From a virus (lineage: Duplodnaviria; Heunggongvirae; Uroviricota; Caudoviricetes): DNA of 34,465 nucleotides. A program made the translations under genes and the position numbers. Under the pieces are notes generated by a model. The model saw nothing but the letters and a program-made list of their open reading frames with translations. It was not told where the DNA came from and did not search any database. Location: the IMG/VR virus record IMGVR_UViG_2869924733_000010, one strand, 5' to 3'. Shown piece by piece: positions 7,045 to 24,389 of this stretch (position 1 is its first letter; each line of letters starts with the position of its first letter).

Positions 7045-8235
7045 TTAATTGCTGTTAACCGAGGTGACCAGATTTGCCTGGTATTTATCGGTAATACGCT
7101 GGCGCAGGGTCAGGTTTTCGAGAGGAGGCACCGGTGTATAGTCGTAGTCGATATACAGTTTTCCGGCCTTGAGGGTTTCCGCATCGTTGGATTCTTCGCT
7201 GAACCAGCAGGTCGCATCCACGATATAGCCGTTTGTTTTCAGCTCACGGAATTTGGCATTGATGCCGTCAACGATGTCGCGAATCAGCGTTGCGGTGATG
7301 GGCTTGTCCACCGCCCACATGTGCGCCTCAGCCATCGTGTCGGCCAGCACCTGCGCGGTGCGGGTGTAGTTTTCAAAGAGGAACAGCGGGTCATCAGAGC
7401 AGGTACGGTTACCCCAGAAGCGGAAACCGTCACGGCGAATCAGCGTTGTGACGCCTGACTCGTTAAGCAGGTCAGCATCGGTGCCGGACTCCTGCAAATC
7501 CCAGAATACGGACGCGCTGATGCCGGTAACACCGTTCACCCCGACGTTGGACAGCGTTTTATGCCAGCCCTGCTCCTGGTCGATTTTAGCGCGCAGCCCC
7601 AGCGCACGGGCGGTGGCATACGCGGTGGAGGTGGTACTGGTGACCGTATCCCATGCGAGGAAATCCGGCCAGATGACCATCAGCTCACGCTGGCTGAAAT
7701 TCTGGCGGTAGGCTTTCACCTCGGAAATGGTTTTACAGCCCCATGCGCTGATATACCCGAAAGCGCGCAGCTTCTGACAGACTGATGCCAGTGCAACAGC
7801 CACCTCTTTGGTATCCAGTCCCGGCACACCGAGAATGCGCGGTTTAACACCGGTTACCGACTCCGCCGCCAGCAGGGCTTTCAGTCCGGTGTACTGACCG
7901 TTTTCGTCGGTGGTGCCGATGATATTGGAAACGGTCTGCGCGAGCTTCGTTTCTTCGTCGTCGCCGGTGCCGTCTTCCACGCGCACAACAACGGTGACCG
8001 GTTTTGACTGGTCAGCGATGGCCTGTAACGACGCCGCCAGCGTGCCTTTTTTACCGGCCTTTGCAATTGCGCTCTGCACATTGGTAATCAGCACCGGTTT
8101 ATTGAGGGGGAAGGTTTCCGCATCTGCATCGCTGGCCGTGCAGACCATGCCGACAATGGCCGTGGATACGGTGGAAATGACGCGGGTGCCGTCGTTAATC
8201 TCCAGCACCTGCACGCCGTGATGATAGTCACTCAT
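7045..8235 (-). CDS. FI: P2 gpFI tail sheath
   Basis: 396 aa, matches P2 FI. Confidence 0.9.
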   Translation of the reverse strand: MSDYHHGVQVLEINDGTRVISTVSTAIVGMVCTASDADAETFPLNKPVLITNVQSAIAKAGKKGTLAASLQAIADQSKPVTVVVRVEDGTGDDEETKLAQTVSNIIGTTDENGQYTGLKALLAAESVTGVKPRILGVPGLDTKEVAVALASVCQKLRAFGYISAWGCKTISEVKAYRQNFSQRELMVIWPDFLAWDTVTSTTSTAYATARALGLRAKIDQEQGWHKTLSNVGVNGVTGISASVFWDLQESGTDADLLNESGVTTLIRRDGFRFWGNRTCSDDPLFLFENYTRTAQVLADTMAEAHMWAVDKPITATLIRDIVDGINAKFRELKTNGYIVDATCWFSEESNDAETLKAGKLYIDYDYTPVPPLENLTLRQRITDKYQANLVTSVNSN

Positions 8236-8531: not shown

Positions 8532-9684
8532 AATAGCTGCGCGGAATAGTAGATCATTTTGAGGGAACTTAGCCCGGATTGTGCGATCTGATCAATCGCC
8601 AAATCAAAACAAATCACCAACCGGACTGAGCAATGCCGATCATAGCACCAATTTCCCGTGACGAACGACGCCTGATGCAGAAAGCCATCCATAAAACACA
8701 CGATAAAAATTATGCCCGCAGACTGACTGCCATGCTGATGCTGCACCGGGGCGACCGTGTCAGCGACGTTGCCAGAACGCTCTGCTGCGCCCGTTCCTCT
8801 GTTGGACGCTGGATTAACTGGTTCACGCAGTCGGGTGTTGAGGGACTGAAATCATTACCTGCCGGGCGTGCCCGTCGCTGGCCGTTTGAGCATATCTGCA
8901 CACTGTTACGTGAGCTGGTAAAACATTCTCCCGGCGACTTTGGCTACCAGCGTTCACGCTGGAGTACAGAACTGCTGGCAATAAAAATCAATGAGATAAC
9001 CGGTTGCCAGTTAAATGCCGGAACCGTTCGCCGCTGGTTGCCGTCTGCGGGGATTGTGTGGCGAAGGGCTGCGCCAACTCTGCGTATCCGTGACCCGCAT
9101 AAAGATGAAAAGATGGCAGCAATCCATAAAGCACTGGACGAATGCAGCGCAGAGCATCCGGTCTTTTATGAAGATGAAGTGGATATCCATCTTCATCCCA
9201 AAATCGGTGCGGACTGGCAACTGCGCGGACAGCAAAAACGGGTGGTCACGCCGGGACAGAATGAAAAATATTATCTGGCCGGAGCGCTGCACAGCGGGAC
9301 AGGTAAAGTCAGCTATGTGGGCGGCAACAGCAAAAGTTCGGCGCTGTTCATCAGCCTGCTGAAGCGGCTTAAAGCGACATACCGTCGGGCGAAAACCATC
9401 ACGCTGATCGTGGACAACTACATTATCCACAAAAGCCGGGAAACACAGAGCTGGCTGAAGGAGAACCCGAAGTTCAGGGTCATTTATCAGCCGGTTTACT
9501 CGCCATGGGTGAATCATGTTGAACGGCTATGGCAGGCACTTCACGACACAATAACGCGTAATCATCAGTGCCGCTCAATGTGGCAACTGTTGAAAAAAGT
9601 TCGCCATTTTATGGAAACCGTCAGCCCATTCCCCGGAGGCAAACATGGACTGGCAAAAGTGTAGCGGTATTAAGCGCAGCTATT
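8532..9684 (+). mobile_element. IS630, complete (1153 bp), TA target duplication in a CTAG context
   Basis: Terminal inverted repeats aatagctgcgc / gcgcagctatt; TA at 8530..8531 and 9685..9686; reconstructed target gaccTAggat. Confidence 0.85.
8633..9664 (+). CDS. IS630 transposase (DDE, Tc1/IS630 family)
   Basis: 343 aa ORF recognised as IS630-family transposase. Confidence 0.85.
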   Translation: MPIIAPISRDERRLMQKAIHKTHDKNYARRLTAMLMLHRGDRVSDVARTLCCARSSVGRWINWFTQSGVEGLKSLPAGRARRWPFEHICTLLRELVKHSPGDFGYQRSRWSTELLAIKINEITGCQLNAGTVRRWLPSAGIVWRRAAPTLRIRDPHKDEKMAAIHKALDECSAEHPVFYEDEVDIHLHPKIGADWQLRGQQKRVVTPGQNEKYYLAGALHSGTGKVSYVGGNSKSSALFISLLKRLKATYRRAKTITLIVDNYIIHKSRETQSWLKENPKFRVIYQPVYSPWVNHVERLWQALHDTITRNHQCRSMWQLLKKVRHFMETVSPFPGGKHGLAKV

Positions 9685-9755: not shown

Positions 9756-10332
9756 ATGACCAAGACAAATAGGCACAACTTTCCTCCAAGCGTTGTAGGT
9801 AAGGTAGCAGAGCGCGCTACATATATTTGTAGCAATCCCTCTTGTCATAGGGTAACAATCGGCCCGGATCAATTGGCGGAAAATCTTTCTATCAAGACGG
9901 GTGAGGCGGCGCATATCTGCGCGGCGAGCCCTGGCGGACCGCGCTATGACATGTCTCAGTCAGAAACAGAGCGGAAGAGCATAAAAAATGCTATATGGTT
10001 GTGCGGAGCTTGTGCTGATTTAGTTGATAAGAATGGCGGTATGGGCTACCCCGCCGAGTATTTGCGAAAATGGAAACGTGACCACGAATCACTAATGAAG
10101 GAGTGCTTGGAGGGAGGAAAGAGGCTAATGTTTCAATTTCTATCGCATCGCCCAGACGAGAAAATTGCTCTGCGGTTGATCCATTTATTGGAAGACAAGA
10201 GTTCTCTTTATCTGCCATATGCTCAAGAGGATCCAGCACGAGTCTCGGATTCTTTGAAGGAGCTCCGACTCTCTCTTACGGCGATTCGCTCCGAGATTGC
10301 ACCTGAGTCTCCGCTATCGTTGATCGTCGAGT
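9756..10332 (+). pseudogene. 5' part (codons 1..192) of an HNH-like zinc-finger protein gene, interrupted by IS911
   Basis: CSNPSCH ... AAHICAASPGGPRYD ... NAIWLCGACADLVDKN matches the HNH pattern CxxC..H..N..CxxC with the last His replaced by Ala; the ORF tail after residue 192 is IS911 sequence. Confidence 0.6.
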
Positions 10333-10667
10333 TGAAGTGGCACACTGAATTTGGCCACCTGAACAGAGGTGATATGCTCACCTCAGAACAACACAGGTGC
10401 TCCAATGAAAAAAAGAAATTTTAGCGCAGAGTTTAAACGCGAATCCGCTCAACTGGTTGTTGACCAGAAATACACGGTGGCAGATGCCGCCAAAGCTATG
10501 GATGTTGGCCTTTCCACAATGACAAGATGGGTCAAACAACTGCGTGATGAGCGTCAGGGCAAAACACCAAAAGCCTCTCCGATAACACCAGAACAAATCG
10601 AAATACGTAAGCTGAGGAAAAAGCTACAACGCATTGAAATGGAGAATGAAATATTAAAAAAGGCTAC

Positions 10668-12796
<2,129 letters not shown>

Positions 12797-12804
12797 CCAC
12801 TTCA

Positions 12805-12983
12805 AGTCAATTGTCCGTGCGTGCCGACACTATATGAATTCAACGCCAGATCGGCCGGGCATTGAGGAGCTTAACTTCTCCCTCGGCGCAGTTCGTAAGG
12901 TAGTAGGAATTAACATCGGAGAACTATTGAAACACTATGAAATCCAGGTGAGTCACGAATTGCATTCTATTATTCCTAAATGA
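12805..12983 (+). pseudogene. 3' part of the IS911-interrupted HNH-like gene
   Basis: Removing IS911 and one AGT copy joins ...IVE to SIVRACRHYMNSTPDRPGIEELNF...IIPK in frame, giving a ~250 aa protein. Confidence 0.6.
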
Positions 12984-13144: not shown

Positions 13145-13930
13145 TTACATCAAAAATAACTTACAATATTTGTAAGTTGCTTTGTGTACGAAAATGCTTG
13201 CGTCAACTCTTGACATCGGATTTTTTAATATCCCTCCGGAACTTCCCTTTCCATGTCTCGCAAGATACCCTAACAGTTCAAAGCTATTAGCAGTGCCCGT
13301 GAATCTGCTGATTTCCTTTTCATCAATATTAAAAGCCATGCTAATTACTTTATCTCTCTGATATTTCTTGCCTTTATAAGCGTCGGGGAAATTTAGTATA
13401 CCTTTCACATATTTATCATATACATATTCTCTAATTGTTTCCCACAAACGATAAAGATTAACCCAATCATAACCTAAGGCACACATACCTAAAACAACAC
13501 GTAAGGATTCATGTTTAGATGATAAATTAATTAATCGTGAAAAATTATCAGCGCGAGGGTGTGGTTGCTGTATGTCATGGAAATTAAAGGGGTTTACCTG
13601 AGTTACATCCATTGATTTAAAGCCGCATATTTCCGAGTAATTAATGCCTTCACTTCCAGAAATAGAAAGAGGACCAAAAGATTGATATCTTTCAAAACCA
13701 TAAAGAACGCTAAGTGCGCCGTTCATGAGCATCAACAAACCTTTTAACTTGGAAGCCAATTCATTTGGGTCGGATATGATATTCAAATGAGGAGATGAAA
13801 GTAAATGAATATCTGTTTGCCCTAAATCAGAGTCAGAATCATCATTTATAGAGAAATCATTCGACCAAACTCCACATAATCCTTTAACAAATCCTGTAGA
13901 TGGAGTAAGTAAAAAACTATAATCGTACAT
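13145..13930 (-). CDS. Hypothetical protein, 261 aa, AT-rich orphan cargo gene
   Basis: Long ORF in low-GC DNA convergent with the HNH-like gene; no family recognised. Confidence 0.6.
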   Translation of the reverse strand: MYDYSFLLTPSTGFVKGLCGVWSNDFSINDDSDSDLGQTDIHLLSSPHLNIISDPNELASKLKGLLMLMNGALSVLYGFERYQSFGPLSISGSEGINYSEICGFKSMDVTQVNPFNFHDIQQPHPRADNFSRLINLSSKHESLRVVLGMCALGYDWVNLYRLWETIREYVYDKYVKGILNFPDAYKGKKYQRDKVISMAFNIDEKEISRFTGTANSFELLGYLARHGKGSSGGILKNPMSRVDASIFVHKATYKYCKLFLM

Positions 13931-14135: not shown

Positions 14136-14200
14136 GGAAACCCACCTGGACGTTCAGGTGATTCTGTCGATTATAGTCATAAAAAAGCCGCCCCGGAGGG

Positions 14201-15501
14201 CTGAGGAATTCCCAGAAAACGAGACAGACATAGCATTATGTGATCTACTGATTTGTGCCAACAATTCAATGAGATCACTGCTATGCCTGTTCATAAAGTA
14301 TGTCAGAATTTCTTCCGGGATGCCTTAGCACCATTTCATCAGTACCGACAAAATGCCCTGATGGATGCCACAGTGGCGTTAATCAACGGAGCATCTCTGA
14401 CGCTGACCAGTATCGGACGTTTTTTCCCGGGTAATGCACAAGTTAAGAATAAGAGCAAACGTATTGATCGCCTCATGGGTAATGAGGCGCTCCATCGCGA
14501 TATTCCAATGATTTTCAGGAATATCACTTCAATGCTGACACGGCAGTTATCTTTATGTGTAATAGCCGTAGACTGGAGTGGCTATCCCTCCCAGGAGCAT
14601 CATGTTCTTCGTGCCAGCCTTCTGTGTGACGGGCGTTCCATTCCGTTATTGAGTAAGGTTGTTCCTTCTGAAAAACAAAATAATCCATTGATACAACATG
14701 ATTTCCTTGATTCCCTTGCTCAATCCCTGCCCCCCGATGCCAGGGTTATTATTGTCACGGATGCTGGATTTCAGAGCGCATGGTTTCACCATATTACTTC
14801 TCTGGGCTGGGATTTTATTGGTCGGATCAGAAATAACGTTCAGTATTGCCTCGATAACGCGCCTGAAAGATGGTTAAAAGTGTCGGATAGCCCTGAATGT
14901 AAAACACCGGAATATATGGGGGCTGGAAGGCTGGTTAAAGAAAGGAAAAAAAGCATCCGGGGGCATTTTTACACCTATAAGAAATCGGCAAAAGGGCGAA
15001 AAAAGAAACGTTCGAAAGGTCAGAGTGGTTTAAACAAAACAGACAAAGAACAGAGCAAATCAGCAAAAGAAGCCTGGTTGATCTTCAGCAGTACAAATGA
15101 CTTCAGAGCGCGAGAAATCATCAAGTTATACAGTCGGCGAATGCAGATAGAGCAAAACTTTCGTGATGAAAAGAACGGGCGCTTCGGATTTGGTCTTCGG
15201 GCCAGCAAAAGTCGTTCAACAGGAAGAATTCTGGTTCTGAGTCTGCTGGCAACGTTGAGCACTATCGTAATGTGGTTACTCGGTTATCACGCTGAAAATA
15301 AAGGGTTACACCTGAAATATCAGGCTAACAGCATTAAATCCCGGCGGGTTATCTCATATCTGACGTTAGCGAAGAATGTTCTTCGACACTCGCCACTTAT
15401 TTTAAGACGAACAGTACTGAGCACAGTTCTAAACCATCTGTCCAGAACCTACCGAAATATGGTGCTGGTTTATTAGCAGTAATTTTGTGGGGATCCCTCA
15501 G
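14201..15501 (+). mobile_element. IS10-like element (IS4 family), 9 bp duplication CCCGGAGGG
   Basis: Ends CTGAGGAATTCCCA / CTGAGGGATCCCCA (inverted); duplication at 14192..14200 and 15502..15510. Confidence 0.8.
14253..15476 (+). CDS. IS10-like transposase
   Basis: 407 aa; KRIDRLMGN, VTDAGFQSAWF and YSRRMQIEQNFRDEK align with IS10 transposase. Confidence 0.8.
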   Translation: MCQQFNEITAMPVHKVCQNFFRDALAPFHQYRQNALMDATVALINGASLTLTSIGRFFPGNAQVKNKSKRIDRLMGNEALHRDIPMIFRNITSMLTRQLSLCVIAVDWSGYPSQEHHVLRASLLCDGRSIPLLSKVVPSEKQNNPLIQHDFLDSLAQSLPPDARVIIVTDAGFQSAWFHHITSLGWDFIGRIRNNVQYCLDNAPERWLKVSDSPECKTPEYMGAGRLVKERKKSIRGHFYTYKKSAKGRKKKRSKGQSGLNKTDKEQSKSAKEAWLIFSSTNDFRAREIIKLYSRRMQIEQNFRDEKNGRFGFGLRASKSRSTGRILVLSLLATLSTIVMWLLGYHAENKGLHLKYQANSIKSRRVISYLTLAKNVLRHSPLILRRTVLSTVLNHLSRTYRNMVLVY

Positions 15502-15659
15502 CCCGGAGGGACGGCTATAAACTCGCCAGTTAACAAGCTGATTTTACCGCTTACGCGGTTCTGTCGTTGCGGTGTTCGCTGACCCACTGCGCCTTTACAG
15601 TTTATCGCTTATGAATCCATGAGCCTTAAATGTCCTGACAAAATCCTCATAGCGCGCAA

Positions 15660-16277
15660 TCATCCCCCCGATGTTTCACGCACATTTTGCTGATGAAAGC
15701 GGAAGTTTGCCTCCGATTCAACACTCTTACTCTTCCAGTCATGGGGAAGGCTTAGCATCACTGGCTTTCTGTTCGGGTAATCAACACTCATAAATGGTAG
15801 CGTACTATCTACGTATGCGGTCATAGCGTCCAAAAAAGCGTCTTTCGCACCATTCACTTCAGTATTGAATAACCGATACTTTTCACCGCTAAATTTTTCA
15901 GCTTTTTCAATGTTTAAGCAAACATCTTGCCGTATACCGCTCAGGTAGCTCTGCTCAACCCATTGAGTAGTATCCTCATAAGGCAGCAATTCAAGGATCT
16001 GGTCGATTATCTTCAGATCATGTTCATCTTGCTTTTTTTTTACAGGGTCCTCAGTAGATTCATTGGATGTGTGGTAAACGTTGGTGGTCTGATTAATATC
16101 CCGCCCGGCCTGGTTCACATCACCCTCGGTTTTCTTTGCCTTCTGTTTTATGTTGTTTTGCTGTCTGATTCTATATGTAACACCGCCCCCAATACCAAAC
16201 AGTGCCAGTACGCCGACTAATAAGCTAAGATAGGTAGCTGCGTCTGCACCAAAATGTGCATTAAGCCATTCAGTCAT
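15660..16277 (-). CDS. Hypothetical membrane-anchored protein, 205 aa (N-terminal TM helix), cargo gene
   Basis: Hydrophobic segment YLSLLVGVLALFGIGGGV then a polar ~170 aa domain; stop codon sits directly on a G6 run, so the 3' end is uncertain. Confidence 0.55.
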   Translation of the reverse strand: MTEWLNAHFGADAATYLSLLVGVLALFGIGGGVTYRIRQQNNIKQKAKKTEGDVNQAGRDINQTTNVYHTSNESTEDPVKKKQDEHDLKIIDQILELLPYEDTTQWVEQSYLSGIRQDVCLNIEKAEKFSGEKYRLFNTEVNGAKDAFLDAMTAYVDSTLPFMSVDYPNRKPVMLSLPHDWKSKSVESEANFRFHQQNVRETSGG

Positions 16278-16363
16278 TTGAACTATGTCCTTACAGTGTG
16301 AGTAAGGATTATAATAACAGAGCTAACTTGCGCAGAAACGAAAAAAGGCAGGTGGATTTGCCC

Positions 16364-17269
16364 CTATATTTCCAGACATCTGTTATCACTTAACCCATTA
16401 CAAGCCCGCTGCCGCAGATATTCCCGTGGCGAGCGATAACCCAGCGCACTATGCGGATGCCATTCGTTATAATGCTCGAACGCCTCTGCAAGGTTCTTTG
16501 CTGCCGTTAACCCGTCTGGTTTGGGCATGATACTGATGTAGTCACGCTTTATCGTTTTCACGAAGCTCTCTGCTATTCCGTTACTCTCCGGACTCCGCAC
16601 CGCCGTGTTCTTCGGTTCAAGTCCCAACATCCGGGCGAACTGGCGTGTTTCATTAGCCCGGTAGCATGAACCATTATCCGTCAGCCACTCCACTGGAGAC
16701 GACGGAAGATCGTTGCCGAAGCGGCGTTCCACCGCTCCCAGCATGACGTCCTGTACTGTTTCACTGTTGAAGCCGCCGGTAGTCACCGCCCAGTGCAGTG
16801 CCTCACGATCACAGCAGTCCAGCGCGAACGTGACACGCAGTCTCTCTCCGTTATCACAGCAGAACTCGAACCCGTCAGAGCACCATCGCTGATTGCTTTC
16901 TTTCACGGCCACTCTGCCTGTATGTGCCCGTTTCGATGGCGGTACAGCAGGTTTTCGCTCAAGCAACAGCGCATTCTGGCGCATGATCCGGTAAACACGT
17001 TTGGCATTGTTCGCAGGCATACCATCAAGTTCTGCCTGTCTGCGAAGCAGCGCCCATACCCGACGATAACCATACGTGGGCAGCTCTCCGATAACATGGT
17101 GTATACGGAGAAGCACATCCGTATCATCAGTGTGACGACTGCGGCGGCCATCCATCCAGTCATCGGTTCGTCTGAGAATGACGTGCAACTGCGCACGCGA
17201 CACCCGGAGACAACGGCTGACTAAGCTTACTCCCCATCCCCGGGCAATAAGGGCGCGTGCGCTATCCAC
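16364..17269 (-). CDS. insD: IS2 transposase InsD
   Basis: 301 aa, recognised as IS2 InsD. Confidence 0.9.
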
Positions 17270-17592
17270 TTTTTTGCCCGTCCATATTCAACGGCTTCTT
17301 TGAGGAGTTCATTTTCCATCGTTTTCTTGCCGAGCAGGCGCTGGAGTTCTTTAATCTGCTTCATGGCGGCAGCAAGTTCAGAGGCAGGAACAACCTGTTC
17401 TCCGGCGGCCACAGCAGTAAGACTTCCTTCCTGGTATTGCTTACGCCAGAGAAATAACTGGCTGGCTGCTACACCATGTTGCCGGGCAACGAGGGAGACC
17501 GTCATCCCCGGTTCAAAGCTCTGCTGAACAATTGCGATCTTTTCCTGTGTGGTACGCCGTCTGCGTTTCTCCGGCCCTAAGACATCAATCAT
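17227..17592 (-). CDS. insC: IS2 InsC
   Basis: 121 aa from internal Met [13 protein letters not shown]. Confidence 0.85.
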
Positions 17593-18094
17593 CTGTACTC
17601 CAATGACTAGTCTAAAAACTAGTATTAAGACTATCACTTATTTAAGTGATACTGGTTGTCTGGAGATTCAGGGGGCCAGTCTAGCAGGGGAGGTAACCCC
17701 CCTGCCTTTAATCAAGTTCCTCCATCCCTTACGGGCGTCCGGTCAGTTGCTTGATGACAACCAGACCAGCTAGCATTATTTGCATCACCAGTAAGACTGT
17801 TGTTAGCGTTATCACTTCGACGTCTCCTCTTCCAGGAGAGCGCCACACGTAGTAAGTGCTTTTGGTTCTACCCGCCCCCCTCACTCCGCATACCATTAGT
17901 TAGCAGGTACAAGCAGCACTCTTTCGTGTGGTAAGCAAACAGGACAGCACTGGACTGACGCCTTGAGCTTTAATATTTCCTTCCGATCCATACAACTAGG
18001 TCTGTTAAAAGCCCCTAGGACGAATTCTACAGAGATGGCTATGGTGCAGGTTTCGGCTATAGGGCTCTTTGATGTAATCGAGGGTCATAACGTT

Positions 18095-18173: not shown

Positions 18174-18701
18174 TTATTGCGGCATTTCCGGCCATTCAGG
18201 ATTTGCAGGATCCACACGACTGACCAGAACGCTGTAGCGTTCCCATGATTCCAGTCGGCTACGCTCCTCATCTGTTGCCATGTTCAGTCTGACCGCGCGC
18301 TCCAGCGGCAAAATCACGGATTCAGCATCTGCAAGAAGTCTGGCTTTCCGAATTTCTGCCTGCTGCTGTAATTCCTCTGCCGTATAAACGCGTTTAATCA
18401 CTTTGCCGTCCTTAAACATCCAGTTCCCTGAAATGTCCGCCCGTCGGTTAGCAGTAATATCCGCCACTTCAACAACACTTAATCCATCCGGTCTGATAGC
18501 TGTCACATCCTTTTCCACATAGTGGATGATATTATCTTTGTCGTACGCTATTTTTATCGTGTCATCAGCAAAATACTTTTGTTCTTCGTACCAGTTCTTA
18601 CCATCTTCTGAAAAAAACCAGACAACATCAAAGTCCTTTGTCAATTGATATTGTTCAACCGTTTTTGGATTACCCGCCGTAATATTTTTTAAATGCTGCA
18701 T
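18174..18701 (-). CDS. G: P2 gpG tail fibre assembly protein
   Basis: 175 aa, matches P2 G. Confidence 0.85.
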
Positions 18702-18704
18702 AAA

Positions 18705-20810
18705 TTATACCTGCACCACGTTATACCATGTCCCGTTAATGTATTTCTGCACCGGTCTGTAATATACGCCACCAATGTTATCGGCAGAGTTTGAGCCGGT
18801 ATCCTGAACAATAATGCCGGTATATACGCAACCTGACGGAGCCTGATGCGTCCATGTAGTACCATTATTTGCTGGTTTATATGTAGATGCACCGCCCAGC
18901 CGCATGTCTCTCACATAACGTGAATCTGACTCAGTTTTGGTGTATGCACCAACATCTCCCGCTGAGGGTTTATGAGCAGTTGTATATAGTTGCGCCCATC
19001 CAGACCAGTTAGCATCTGTGGTATCTCGTCGGGAACGAATATATGCCGGAGCATGAGCACCGCTGGTTCCACTCCAACCAATAAGTAACTCACCCTCTCC
19101 TACTGCGGTTACGCCAGTGAGATGAAGCACATTACCATAGGCTGTTGGGTAGCCATTGTTGTATGCCTCATACATCTGAATACCTGGTGTCCCCTTTACG
19201 CTCCCACCTAATGCAGTAACACGGTTTCTGGATACCAGTGTATTAATATTTATATCGGCAGAGCCATCAAATCTGACACCATTAATATTTCTTGCGTTCG
19301 CTAACTTCGTTGCTGTTGCAGCATTTCCTGAAAGGCTGGAAATAAATGGATGTGAACAGTAATAACCACGTCCATTTTTAAAATCCAGAATAGCCTGTGC
19401 GTTCGTGCTTTCTGTAGCGGGATTAGTTGCCCCCCACTTATATGTCGTTTGACCGACGACATAATCCTCTGTCGGAACAATAACCGTTAGCCCTTCCTCT
19501 GCAAGAATTTGTACAGGGAAAGCTCTGGCTTCAACATAAAAAACACTACATACATCATCATCTTTCAGGCTTGTAACAATGGAATGGATTGAACGCTCAT
19601 TAGTCTGATACGTCCAGTAATAACCTGCCGCATATGAACCACGATCAGTCCAGCCTCCGGGCATAACCATGCCATTAAACTCGCAGTTATTCATTACATA
19701 ATCGCCGTTATAACAACCAGTGGAAATAACAACGCGGGATGCCATTTCTCCTGAAAGGCTGGCAGCACGGCGAAAGATAACGGGGTACCACTTCCCGGCA
19801 ACGACATTTGCAGGGGCTGCAAACGAATACTTTCGCATTCCCTTTTTCTTATCCACTTCACCTTTGCTGTAAACATTAATGTTACTCAGGAAGCGTTCTT
19901 TATCAGGGATATCCGCACCGTTCTGATCTTTCTGAAGACGTTTTTCAGCATTGTCATAGGCAGACTTCACCGCCTTTGGCGTTGCAGCCTGCGTTTCAGA
20001 ATCACTGTTGGTGGCGCTACTGAGCTGAACAAGGCCTTTTCGCGCTGTTGTGGCATCCTGTGCAGTGTATTTCCCGTTAGCAAGGTCATATGCTTTCGGC
20101 GTTGCGGCGAGCGTTTCAGACGTGCTGTTAGTCGCACTACTGAGCTGAACAAGGCCTTTTCGCGCGGTGGTGGCATCCTGCGCGGTATATTTCCCGTTAG
20201 CAAGGTCATAGGCGGTCTTTACCGCTCTCGGCGTTGCAGCCAGTGTTTCAGACATGCTGTTGGTCGCACTGCTTAACTGAGTAAAACCTTTTGCGGTCAG
20301 CGAGGCGTCCGGGTGACGTCGTGACTGTTCGTGCTCTGCAATTTTGTCATCAACGTAATCCTGCGTCGCCATCACCGTTGTGGTGTCAATGGTCAGCTCC
20401 ACTGAGGCCACACTGCTGACGATGATGACCATACGGCAGGTCTGCGAACGCCCTGAGCCTTCGGCAAGAGCTGGCTTATAACTTTCGGCCATGTTCGCCA
20501 CGGCAATTAACGTTCCCGCATCATCGTACAGGCCAAGCTCACGCATCCAGAAACCGCCCACCTCCGGCGGAATAACCAGCTCTGCGATAATATAATTACT
20601 GTTTCGTTTGTCTTGGCTGATTTTGTTCAGCGCATGTCGCCAGACTTCATGGATAAGCCCGGTCTGTCCGGCATCCGGGACAGGCAATTTACCACCGCCA
20701 TCCCCGACGGCCATCGTGGTAATGTTGACCTTCCGCCCTCCCGGTGCGGTTGCCGCTGCCAGCTTTGCTGCACCGGCAGTGGTGATAACGGTTCTGAATT
20801 TTGTGCTCAT
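18705..20810 (-). CDS. H: P2 gpH tail fibre
   Basis: 701 aa; conserved N-terminal region and internal repeats. Confidence 0.85.
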   Translation of the reverse strand: MSTKFRTVITTAGAAKLAAATAPGGRKVNITTMAVGDGGGKLPVPDAGQTGLIHEVWRHALNKISQDKRNSNYIIAELVIPPEVGGFWMRELGLYDDAGTLIAVANMAESYKPALAEGSGRSQTCRMVIIVSSVASVELTIDTTTVMATQDYVDDKIAEHEQSRRHPDASLTAKGFTQLSSATNSMSETLAATPRAVKTAYDLANGKYTAQDATTARKGLVQLSSATNSTSETLAATPKAYDLANGKYTAQDATTARKGLVQLSSATNSDSETQAATPKAVKSAYDNAEKRLQKDQNGADIPDKERFLSNINVYSKGEVDKKKGMRKYSFAAPANVVAGKWYPVIFRRAASLSGEMASRVVISTGCYNGDYVMNNCEFNGMVMPGGWTDRGSYAAGYYWTYQTNERSIHSIVTSLKDDDVCSVFYVEARAFPVQILAEEGLTVIVPTEDYVVGQTTYKWGATNPATESTNAQAILDFKNGRGYYCSHPFISSLSGNAATATKLANARNINGVRFDGSADININTLVSRNRVTALGGSVKGTPGIQMYEAYNNGYPTAYGNVLHLTGVTAVGEGELLIGWSGTSGAHAPAYIRSRRDTTDANWSGWAQLYTTAHKPSAGDVGAYTKTESDSRYVRDMRLGGASTYKPANNGTTWTHQAPSGCVYTGIIVQDTGSNSADNIGGVYYRPVQKYINGTWYNVVQV
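19946..20297. repeat. Tandem ~120 nt coding repeats inside tail fibre gene H
   Basis: Protein segment YDLANGKYTAQDATTARKGLVQLSSATNS occurs twice in full with partial flanking copies. Confidence 0.7.
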
Positions 20811-22604: not shown

Positions 22605-23230
22605 AGAGGACTCCCGGTTGTGCCGCCGCTGTCGCCGGGGTGTTTATGGGTATGCAGTACCTTACCGTTTGATGAGAGTTCACCGCCGGTATGTTTAATG
22701 TTGCCGCGCATCGTCCCGCCCTTCTGCACTTCCAGCGTGCCGGTAATCAGTCTGTTGGTGCAGACCACCTCCGGGGTGTCCAGGGTGATGCGGGTTGACG
22801 CTTTCACCATGACCACCGGCACCGTGGCAGTAACAGAATCAGAAGCCGTCACGCTGGCCGTTTTAATTCCGCTTACCGTGAGTGCACTGGTTTCGGGTTC
22901 ATACTCAATCACCGCCCCGTCAGGGAAACGGATATGCAGGGCATCCGCCGACGCAGACGGCGCGGGGTTATCGCAGGAATAAATCCCCGGCAGAACGAAC
23001 GCCGTGTCGAGTTCACCGCCCACGGCCAGAATCAGCACCTGTTCCCCCACGGAAGGTGCCCACCATGTGCGCGAACGTCCGGCGCGATGGGTCAGCCACT
23101 GAAGCCAGTCGGTGCACATGCCGCCGGTCTGCACACGGCAGCGACCGGCATTAAGGTCGGTTTCGACAATAATGCCAGTGCGAATCATATTGCGTATAAA
23201 GCGAAGAATTTCATTGTATTGTGCATTCAT
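22601..23230 (-). CDS. V: P2 gpV baseplate spike
   Basis: 209 aa from internal Met MNAQYNEILRFIRNMIRTGIIVETD; ORF track start at 23308 is too long. Confidence 0.8.
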   Translation of the reverse strand: MNAQYNEILRFIRNMIRTGIIVETDLNAGRCRVQTGGMCTDWLQWLTHRAGRSRTWWAPSVGEQVLILAVGGELDTAFVLPGIYSCDNPAPSASADALHIRFPDGAVIEYEPETSALTVSGIKTASVTASDSVTATVPVVMVKASTRITLDTPEVVCTNRLITGTLEVQKGGTMRGNIKHTGGELSSNGKVLHTHKHPGDSGGTTGSPL

Positions 23231-23316
23231 TCGATAATAATGATTCTGTACAATCTCGAAGTAAATCACACCACGATTTCTGGTGCACAGAACAACAAGG
23301 GACAACAAAATCCATT

Positions 23317-23883
23317 ATGAGTACTTACTTTTTCTCGTCAGAAACAATGAAAGAATTGTTCAAAGATTATCTGGTCTTTTTGAACACGCTGACTCCCGGC
23401 ACAAACTTTGAATCAAACAGAAACAAAATAATTGCTCAAGCAATAAACTTCATTTCCGAAAACCCTGAAGATTGGGACAAAAAATCCCAGCACAACATTG
23501 CTATGATTGGCGACACCTTTAAAAGTTTCTTAAGAAAAAAGGGAGAAGATAACAACAGCATCAACCTTATATTCACTTGCTTTTTTAGCTTTATCATTGA
23601 ACCAAGCATTCTCTCTCCGGAAATAGAGTCTCACTTTTCACCACTAAGAACCATCAAGGATTTTGCTCTGTATAACTATAATGAATTCGATGAGCGGAGC
23701 AGAGCACAGATAGACTTTTCTCTTAGAGAACTGCCATTAGCAATGGTTAAAGAAGTTTTAAGCTCCAGCAATGTTGACACATATAAAAAATACATTGATA
23801 GTTTAAACGAAGGGCGTCAATTTTTCGAAAAGTGCGACTCCTTCTTAAAGGAGCAACATGCCAAAATAGAGTCAATCAAATAG
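23317..23883 (+). CDS. Hypothetical soluble protein, 189 aa; first gene of the S-V insert
   Basis: ATG at 23317 (MSTYFFSSETMKELFK...) in low-GC DNA, divergent from V; no family recognised. Confidence 0.6.
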   Translation: MSTYFFSSETMKELFKDYLVFLNTLTPGTNFESNRNKIIAQAINFISENPEDWDKKSQHNIAMIGDTFKSFLRKKGEDNNSINLIFTCFFSFIIEPSILSPEIESHFSPLRTIKDFALYNYNEFDERSRAQIDFSLRELPLAMVKEVLSSSNVDTYKKYIDSLNEGRQFFEKCDSFLKEQHAKIESIK

Positions 23884-23969
23884 TCATTAAAAGGGTATGA
23901 GGTCGCATTTAATTTTGTTGGATTGTTTGAAGGCTTTAATTCACTTGGCAAAAAAAAGAAAGTGCAATC

Positions 23970-24389
23970 ATGCTATCAAGAATAATTCTTATCATCTTGG
24001 CTATAATCATTCCCTCCCAGCTGATATACTATGGAATGCATAAATTACCAGCTCTCGAAACGACAAATGCTGCCACATATTTTATGTCAGCACTACCTTT
24101 TGCATCAGTTACATTGATTTTCATGTATTACTTTAGAGTTGTACTGCTAAATCATATATCGTTACGAACTCAGATTATGCAAATAGAACTCAGAAAGAGC
24201 CTTTGTCAGTTCATTCAGAGTTATAGCGACTATTCCTCAGAGATAAGGAAAAACAATCCGGAAGCGCTTTCAAAATTCGAAGACGTAGTATTTTCAAACA
24301 TCATGCTATCCGATGATAAGATACCATCTACATTTGATGGCATTGAGCAAATAGCATCGTTAATCAATTCATTAAAAAATGGAAAGTAA
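23970..24389 (+). CDS. Hypothetical small membrane protein, 139 aa, two N-terminal TM helices; second gene of the S-V insert
   Basis: Hydrophobic segments IILIILAIIIPSQLIYY and ATYFMSALPFASVTLIFMYYF; followed by a terminator. Confidence 0.6.
   Translation: MLSRIILIILAIIIPSQLIYYGMHKLPALETTNAATYFMSALPFASVTLIFMYYFRVVLLNHISLRTQIMQIELRKSLCQFIQSYSDYSSEIRKNNPEALSKFEDVVFSNIMLSDDKIPSTFDGIEQIASLINSLKNGK

Follow-up and report, generated by a model that had tools for sequence, protein, structure and literature searches.

The stretch of viral DNA analyzed here, hereafter called the window, is the IMG/VR record IMGVR_UViG_2869924733_000010 (34,465 nucleotides; Duplodnaviria, Caudoviricetes). It contains an open reading frame (ORF) of 205 codons on the minus strand (15660..16277) whose stop codon falls at a homopolymer, and the question raised by this locus is whether the encoded protein truly ends there and, if not, what the complete protein might do. 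The ORF begins with ATG, and its 3′ end reads ACA TCG GGG GGA TGA, which places the stop codon at 15660..15662 and a run of six G residues (G6) at 15664..15669. An initial annotation, made from the letters of the window, had described this arrangement and calculated that one extra G would add 22 codons; both the reading of the 3′ end and the arithmetic were borne out. With seven G residues (G7) the frame gains 22 codons (MIARYEDFVRTFKAHGFISDKL) up to a TAA at 15595..15597, for a total of 227 amino acids (aa). G and C runs of at least six bases are scarce in the window, which has only five, and its longest homopolymer is an A9 run within the same gene (16033..16041, minus strand). Our best explanation, to which we give an even chance, is that the window holds a G7-to-G6 copy of a stand-alone, mobile, abortive-infection-type anti-phage gene carried in a decaying P2-like prophage.

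Intact copies of the gene were found among close relatives. By megablast, the 855-bp unique segment 15502..16356 is present at ≥99.5% identity in 32 complete E. coli genomes, and in one of these, AH65, it is annotated as a 684-nt gene for a 227-aa hypothetical protein, WP_000141343.1. In a three-way alignment of the window, AH65 and elppa5, G6 versus G7 was the sole coding difference between the window and AH65; the elppa5 copy is broken at the other tract, where it has A10 rather than A9. An 81-nt probe centered on the G run matched all carrier complete E. coli genomes (33 of 33) over 82 nt, which gives G7 in every one of them. Fourteen full-length homologues, 219 to 234 aa in length and 36% to 100% identical, were also aligned. 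Their last 22 residues are conserved, with Y210, F222, I223 and D225 invariant and F213, V214, K218 and K226 nearly so, and the last-helix motif YxxFIxxxK persists in a broader alignment down to 15% to 20% identity.

The suspicion of the initial annotation that the true C-terminus may differ was therefore well founded: in the close relatives from complete E. coli genomes it lies 22 codons further on, and homologues do not stop at residue 205. In an AlphaFold 2 (AF2) model built from the broad alignment, the last helix spans residues 186 to 219, such that residue 205 lies inside it and truncation roughly halves it. The window product has neither a complete last helix nor the tail (YxxFVxxxK...FI[ST]DK), and the coding sequence for the lost portion survives in another frame at 15595..15663 (minus strand), together with the original TAA stop. 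Because the close relatives in complete E. coli genomes all carry G7 and the tail is conserved in all 14 homologues, the window copy is a −1 frameshift allele of the 227-aa protein that cuts its final helix. With the second half of this helix and the conserved tail lost, the window copy is most likely non-functional.

If G6 were instead a homopolymer consensus error, the organism would really have G7 and an intact gene. The initial annotation had raised this suspicion after noting 1-nt losses in three further genes of the window. These losses are present: compared with the same prophage in E. coli ECE218, single nucleotides are deleted at ∼5940 (C5 to C4, tape measure), at ∼6837 (C5 to C4, tail tube) and at ∼32676 (terminase, outside homopolymers). 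Several observations weigh against accepting G6 as real. All four single-base differences between the window and its relatives are G/C deletions, and three of these fall in runs. A 561-bp contig encodes part of the S. dysenteriae protein (P0133) in the read-through frame, with G7, and L049, a contig of the same lineage as the window, likewise has G7. The closely related L048, which has G6, is rich in indels and hence no high-quality independent witness. On the other side, protein records with exactly the 205-aa sequence exist for S. dysenteriae (WP_284525847.1) and for E. coli metagenome-assembled genomes (MAGs), and at least 24 contigs, drawn from NCBI, ENA metagenomes and Logan assemblies of read sets, encode this exact product. 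These represent four contexts: a CP4-like island in which an IS200-type element lies upstream, the arrangement of the window, an integrase context, and the contig L029, which is free of insertion sequences (IS). In addition, two of the other frameshift products recur: the tail-tube fragment is found on 135 contigs and the truncated terminase (569 aa) on 35, some of which belong to several S. dysenteriae assemblies. The recurrence of these lesions indicates that the frameshifts of this prophage are inherited rather than noise, and argues that the prophage is decaying or defective and not merely part of a poorly polished assembly. We consider an assembly artefact quite unlikely. The suspicion found little support, as G6 recurs as a natural allele in many assemblies, and in the window it is probably a real allele.

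The distribution of G6 also bears on how it arose. The window's own arrangement occurs in CP027027.1 (L022), which matches the window at 100% identity across 6618 bp and is its source genome, probably Shigella dysenteriae; G6 is found with both alleles of an upstream single-nucleotide polymorphism. On the window backbone (99.8% to 99.9% identity) three contigs form a series of accumulating insertion sequences. L049 carries an IS4-family and an IS630-like element and has G7 but A8; L048 additionally carries IS2 and an IS3-family element and has G6; the window, also G6, additionally has a nested IS30-family element. Another P2-like backbone, at ∼97.7% identity, is represented by L029, which has G6 and the IS-free gene order 205-aa gene, 261-aa gene, DUF6650 gene and sheath gene, and by L046, which has G7. 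Since G6 is present on two backbones and L049 of the window lineage is G7, the change from G7 to G6 has arisen at least twice independently. An earlier interpretation of ours, drawn from the IS-free L029, held that G6 predates the IS insertions; it was withdrawn because L049 is G7 and the backbone of L029 differs. Recurrent slippage fits the distribution of G6 better than a single origin before the IS insertions.

Broken copies of the gene are frequent beyond G6. The A9 run of the window encodes the KKK of a linker, and in relatives frameshifts are concentrated at this second site too: breaks include A10 in elppa5, A8 in L049 and a deletion beside the A-run in Serratia montpellierensis. The Salmonella plasmid copy that was examined breaks at an A8 run, and a second Salmonella plasmid match is likewise in two pieces. 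Fragments of 131 aa that correspond to the second half of the protein are numerous in E. coli, Morganella and Serratia. Tract-length polymorphism at the intragenic homopolymers is thus seen across assemblies (G6/G7 and A8/A9/A10). Such a pattern could be produced by a phase-variable contingency locus in which a costly gene is turned on and off reversibly through its A9 and G7 tracts. For this speak the occurrence of G6 on at least two or three backgrounds, the range of breaks at or beside the A-run in E. coli, Serratia and Salmonella, the fragments in Morganella and Serratia, and the presence within the gene of the longest homopolymer of the window. However, the complete E. coli genomes are uniformly G7, and their A-run is altered in length in only 1 of 32, by one additional A; of the others, 27 match exactly and 4 differ by a substitution. 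A synonymous-codon permutation, in which the protein and codon pool were held fixed, gave only P = 0.015 for both long tracts together. Furthermore, most of the family has an A6–A9 run in the Lys-rich linker, but G7 is confined to the E. coli-type allele; the G run is interrupted in Serratia and absent from other family members. We therefore regard phase variation as very unlikely. The breaks fit either a costly gene that is often lost or plain mutational hot spots, and are too little to claim phase variation. Note that a profile search also returned stand-alone N-terminal mini-proteins of 58 to 87 aa; these are probably not real small genes, as several end at the poly-A/KKK frameshift position.

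The intact 227-aa protein is laid out as a short N-terminal peptide, one membrane helix, a disordered linker and a four-helix domain. This agrees with the initial annotation, which had proposed one N-terminal transmembrane helix followed by a polar part: the helix comprises residues ∼17 to 34 (mean Kyte–Doolittle value 2.07) and is followed by a polar linker. The N-terminal module (residues 1 to 60) consists of the motif WLNxxxGxDxATY, the ∼18-residue hydrophobic helix and a basic stretch; the window ORF matches the E. coli protein exactly over residues 1 to 45, a stretch that can be aligned with all 14 family members. The C-terminal domain motifs HDxKIxxxILxxLPYExT (residues 86 to 103) and PPxxWK (178 to 182) are present in the window ORF as well. 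In all proteins checked, the flank before the helix has no K or R and one to three acidic residues, except in P0063, which has one R there; the 15 residues after the helix contain four to seven K or R in enterobacterial members. Under the positive-inside rule, this asymmetry predicts that the N-terminus is likely outside and the rest of the protein, ∼190 of 227 residues, cytoplasmic. The AF2 model has a mean pLDDT (per-residue model confidence) of 83, with values of 91 to 98 across the four-helix domain and low values in the linker, which carries GDxxQAGRDIN-type repeats (three copies in the family member P0008).

No established family could be assigned. Searches of Pfam, PADLOC, NCBIfam and PHROGs with the 205-aa and 227-aa proteins gave no family match, and the hidden Markov models of PADLOC-DB v2.0.0 returned nothing for the 227-aa protein at E values up to 1. 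These family-library searches thus revealed no homology to a known superinfection-exclusion (Sie), abortive-infection (Abi) or defense family. BFVD yielded no match, a profile search against PDB sequences was likewise without a match, and the four-helix domain gave no informative fold match. P0008 has a weak PHROG match to an Rz-like spanin (E = 1.4e-4) over the membrane helix and repetitive linker, which was set aside as compositional. In the literature, main texts held nothing for LPO_1073 (a domain discussed below) or WP_000141343, the latter accession appearing only in supplementary tables.

The two halves of the protein occur separately. The C-terminal domain is found behind varied hydrophobic N-termini, which look multi-transmembrane by eye, and in P0058 and P0180 it stands behind a TIR_2 domain (PF13676; 32.7 bits, cutoff 28). 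P0058 adjoins a DUF6088/AbiEii pair on a conjugative element. These two proteins share the four-helix domain with the 227-aa protein and have TIR, typical of immune proteins, in place of the membrane helix; the 227-aa protein itself has no TIR domain. The swap suggests that the membrane helix occupies the position of an effector, and does not reveal the function of the shared domain. Conversely, in three proteins (P0039, P0044 and P0063) the N-terminal module is fused to the uncharacterized LPO_1073/Vpar_1526 domain (NF045477; also phrog_19542). Fusions of this kind suggest that the N-terminal module may be a shared membrane-anchoring or effector cassette for at least two unrelated C-terminal domains.

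The gene is rare and occurs in many settings. A profile search of 1.84 billion representatives gave 60 matches, and the gene is carried by only 4 of 185,579 species-representative genomes and by 5 viral contigs; tblastn against 50,697 phage genomes found no relative in any isolated phage genome. Eight plasmids carry it. In AH65 it is bracketed by strong terminator hairpins (L001 7983–8012 and 8841–8861). The Vibrio alginolyticus homologue (gene at L003 8001–8690) forms an integron cassette of one gene, enclosed by attC-type repeats (7814–7970 and 8688–8844) that are spaced 874 nt apart and belong to an array with at least 10 repeats. In Serratia proteamaculans the gene, at 98% nucleotide identity, lies between a thymidylate-kinase-like gene and a DEAD-box helicase gene. 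Further copies are located after the tail fibers of a lambda-like prophage; with a KAP NTPase, a convergent Abi_2 gene and ParE (L008/L009); with putAbiC, adjoining a Tn7-like CRISPR transposon; and on an island with DarTG and a type I restriction-modification (RM) system. The downstream neighbors of different homologues are mutually unrelated. Taken together, the terminators in E. coli, the Vibrio cassette and the changing neighbors mark the gene as a self-contained unit that moves alone between prophages, plasmids, integrons and genomic islands.

Integron cassettes are reported to encode phage defense systems (10.1101/2024.07.02.601719). An integron in a Marinobacterium MAG (L045 3649..7264) comprises an integron-type integrase, a 229-aa homologue, a 115-aa membrane protein and a 285-aa TIR_2 protein, and its first cassettes look defense-related. 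On Yersinia conjugative plasmids (L012 4290..6493 and L013 5001..7207), a 227-like gene, a HEPN_RiboL-PSP gene and a gene for a CAAX/Abi-type protease form a conserved trio, with a tyrosine recombinase beside it, whose arrangement looks like an operon.

A defense function has already been predicted for the intact protein. In the DefensePredictor study (Science 2026; PMC13092281), WP_000141343.1 is listed in Table S5 as a 'Predicted novel defense gene' in its own operon and with no defense homologue, and its mean log-odds of 5.34 (standard deviation 1.56, range 2.48 to 7.08) exceeds the strict cutoff of 4. It is absent from the table of cloned units, of which 45% were validated overall. The published entry, a computational prediction, is identical to the window product apart from the missing G, and shares with it the upstream region and the neighbors (261-aa and DUF6650); the window copy differs in ending at residue 205 and in being flanked by IS2 and an IS4-family element. 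Independently of this prediction, the gene keeps defense company in unrelated elements: a prophage slot that elsewhere holds gapS4a/gapS4b, the island with DarTG and type I RM, the KAP NTPase and Abi_2 locus, the putAbiC locus, the integron arrays, and its validated neighbor DS-29 (described below). Support for a defense role comes from this context and from the machine-learning prediction, and we consider the question whether the intact 227-aa protein has such a role to be evenly balanced. The gene is in any case rare, uncharacterized and already flagged computationally as a defense candidate, and the family merits experimental test.

The initial annotation had compared the protein with Sie or Abi membrane proteins of prophages. 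This guess remains plausible. A large domain predicted to be cytoplasmic fits an Abi-type sensor or effector better than a periplasmic blocker of entry, and the searches found no homology to any such family. A possible mechanism can be outlined. The short acidic N-terminus would lie outside, with one helix crossing the inner membrane and the disordered Lys-rich linker carrying the four-helix domain in the cytoplasm. There, the helical domain might sense an infection cue, which would drive self-association of the membrane helices; the associated helices would then compromise the membrane, and phage growth would stop. The membrane-damage step is proposed because the helix swaps position with TIR, an immune effector domain, and because no enzymatic motif is present, and has no other basis. 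This chain of events is tentative and, as a whole, rather doubtful. A more ambitious version, in which the proteins form a new single-gene immune family with a four-helix cytoplasmic sensor module coupled to either a membrane helix or TIR, and in which the A9 and G7 tracts are on/off switches with the window copy in the off state, strikes us as highly improbable.

Other functions have to be weighed against defense by abortive infection. Small membrane proteins such as P22 SieA, T4 Imm and P2 Z/fun are superinfection-exclusion or moron products of prophages, and the 227-aa protein might similarly block entry of phage genomes (or conjugative DNA) at the inner membrane. Like them, it is a small membrane-anchored product of an insulated promoter–gene–terminator unit in a prophage cargo slot. 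It has a single predicted membrane pass, its gene follows the tail fiber genes in P2-like and lambda-like prophages and occurs on conjugative plasmids, and the outward-predicted N-terminal peptide (WLNxNxGxDxATY) is the most conserved stretch of the N-terminal module. Unlike them, it has a large predicted cytoplasmic domain and has neither a relative among the 50,697 phage genomes, in which P2 is expected to be included, nor a PHROG match; Pfam and BFVD were equally without a match to phage protein families. The predicted placement of most residues in the cytoplasm, the occurrence in other lineages of the C-terminal domain fused to the cytoplasmic effector domain TIR, and the existence of the gene as a chromosomal integron cassette also tell against exclusion, which we regard as distinctly unlikely. 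A partnership with an HEPN nuclease is a similarly improbable alternative. In such a system the protein would be a sensor, anchor or pore acting with an adjacent HEPN-type RNase, as Csx28 does with Cas13b, or an antitoxin-like regulator. Csx28 (PDB 8GI1, cited for DS-13 in Table S8 of PMC13092281) resembles the 227-aa protein in having an N-terminal membrane helix and a cytoplasmic helical domain, and HEPN-type neighbors are frequent here. On the Yersinia plasmids the HEPN_RiboL-PSP gene (30.4 bits versus a cutoff of 28.4) begins 11 nt downstream; on the Salmonella plasmid a gene for a 196-aa protein containing LRLRDEIAHG, a putative Rx4H motif, begins 15 nt downstream; the Abi_2 gene of L008/L009 is convergent; and DS-29, the neighbor in E. 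coli and Shigella, is HEPN-like at an HHpred probability of 0.59. Nevertheless, many contexts are without an HEPN-type gene, such that adjacency is not obligate, and no structural similarity to Csx28 was found.

The protein may also have no defense role at all and be an accessory membrane protein of mobile elements, for example part of an addiction or toxin module, a modifier of the envelope or a contributor to an element function. Three observations count in favor of this and against defense: the searches found no homology to any defense family, the Vibrio array and several other contexts are rich in toxin–antitoxin pairs, and 55% of cloned DefensePredictor candidates gave no protection. By contrast, the gene is found repeatedly beside validated or recognized defense genes in unrelated elements, and a TIR fusion such as that of its C-terminal domain is typical of immune proteins. 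A non-defense role is therefore unlikely in our judgment, and an abortive-infection-type defense function is the reading that we retain. If the intact gene does protect, it would be a very compact (227 aa), non-enzymatic defense protein that moves alone between prophages, plasmids, integrons and islands, and would also define a new sensor-like domain that TIR proteins share. The experimental set-up is simple, as intact and naturally truncated alleles both exist and the neighbor DS-29 has already been validated in the same host/vector system. For the window itself, the odd stop codon marks a genuine frameshift in a gene that is one of three in the cargo, and the local copy is probably inactive.

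The window begins with yegQ/trhP, followed by a P2-like prophage whose backbone, and only its backbone, is ∼97% identical to E. coli prophages; the cargo varies by strain. The cargo (∼10 kb) is bounded by the P2-type tail sheath gene (FI, 7045..8235, minus strand) and the P2-type tail fiber assembly gene (G, 18174..18701, minus strand). In ECE218, which has the same prophage at the same chromosomal site, this slot holds gapS4a/gapS4b (L030 20513..22586), so that the sheath-to-tail-fiber slot exchanges defense cargo. P2's own Z/fun occupies the same slot. The possibility that the slot is the published P2 defense hotspot was rejected, since the hotspot of Rousset et al. lies between gpA and gpQ (PMC9122126), a different locus. 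The undamaged, IS-free form of the cargo is seen in the IMG/VR prophages L046 and L047, with the order tail fiber H, G, 227-aa gene, 261-aa gene, DUF6650 gene and sheath.

When the 3.4-kb block of AH65 (L001 7545..10989) was mapped to the window, all of it was found to be present, cut by four insertion events that involve five insertion sequences. IS2 (16353..17683, minus strand; 1331 bp with a 5-bp target duplication) lies within the terminator hairpin upstream of the 205-aa gene, and has displaced the left arm of this hairpin (AAAGGCAGGGGGGTTACCTCCCCTGC) to 17684..17709 (minus strand). An IS4-family element with IS10-like ends (14201..15501, plus strand; 9-bp target duplication) separates the 205-aa gene from its 261-aa neighbor. 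An IS3-family element carrying an IS30-family element (10333..12801; IS30-family transposase ORF at 10675..11826) lies further along, and an IS630-like insertion (8532..9684, plus strand) is located at the sheath-proximal edge of the cargo. Both elements that flank the 205-aa gene sit inside terminator stem-loops, with hairpin arms at 16344..16352 and 17684..17709 for IS2 and at 15502..15516 and 14192..14200 for the IS4-family element. Between them, the gene keeps its native upstream region (16278..16352, minus strand), with a TGTTATTATAAT element that includes a perfect TATAAT (16308..16313), and with an AAGGA ribosome-binding site; a consensus promoter scan made no call in this interval, and the promoter there is proposed from reading of the sequence by eye. 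At its end, the 3′ untranslated region (15502..15594, minus strand) retains the left arm of the gene's own terminator, a hairpin that the IS4-family insertion interrupts.

The neighboring 261-aa gene (13145..13930, minus strand) is intact and orthologous to DS-29 (WP_061089765.1); its product departs from the tested protein at a single position (N246I), and the IS4-family insertion lies upstream of the gene. WP_061089765.1 was cloned alone as 'HEP3' and validated as the single-gene system DS-29, which confers protection from Bas60, T4, Candy and RB69; its HEPN-like annotation is only weak (PMC13092281). The third cargo gene (9756..12983, plus strand) encodes a 250-aa DUF6650/HNH-like protein (WP_059356353.1). 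It is split at 10332/12802 by the IS3-family element, and its two pieces, 9756..10332 and 12802..12983, give an intact 250-aa reading when the element is removed. The protein matches the PADLOC model PDC-M68A-like (E = 5e-24) and is predicted as a defense protein with a DefensePredictor score of 5.48 (PMC13092281).

DS-29 is the immediate neighbor of the 227-like gene in nearly every E. coli-type context (the exceptions being L023 and L028), within the same cargo block. It is an unrelated protein that lies beyond a terminator and acts alone, and Klebsiella and other genera carry it in the absence of the 227-like gene. The 261-aa family also occurs in Klebsiella, Dickeya, Citrobacter, Proteus and Pantoea, and in Klebsiella the 261-aa gene is convergent with the DUF6650 gene in two settings, a P4-like satellite and a NACHT island, neither of which has a 227-like gene in the vicinity. 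A two-gene system of the 227-aa protein with this neighbor was considered and rejected, given that the 261-aa gene pairs with DUF6650 where the 227-like gene is absent and was validated alone. Conversely, in Serratia, Vibrio and others the 227-like gene is unaccompanied by the 261-aa gene, and in AH65 a terminator separates the two. The 261-aa protein had no homology to the HEPN neighbor of the Yersinia plasmids by BLASTP. The cargo thus consists of two modules, the 205-aa gene and the pair of DS-29 and DUF6650 genes, rather than of one three-gene system.

Two further features of the prophage were noted. The tail fiber gene (18705..20810) encodes 701 aa, whereas relatives have 749 aa. Indels cluster in it at ∼20091..20111, and it contains an internal repeat (19947..20295) that aligns with itself at ∼79% identity; the shorter fiber may reflect a contraction of repeats in the fiber shaft. 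At 23221..24389 (plus strand), two ORFs of 220 and 139 aa stand amid minus-strand tail and baseplate genes, at a position where ECE218 has a single gene for a 261-aa hypothetical protein; this may be another small cargo slot.

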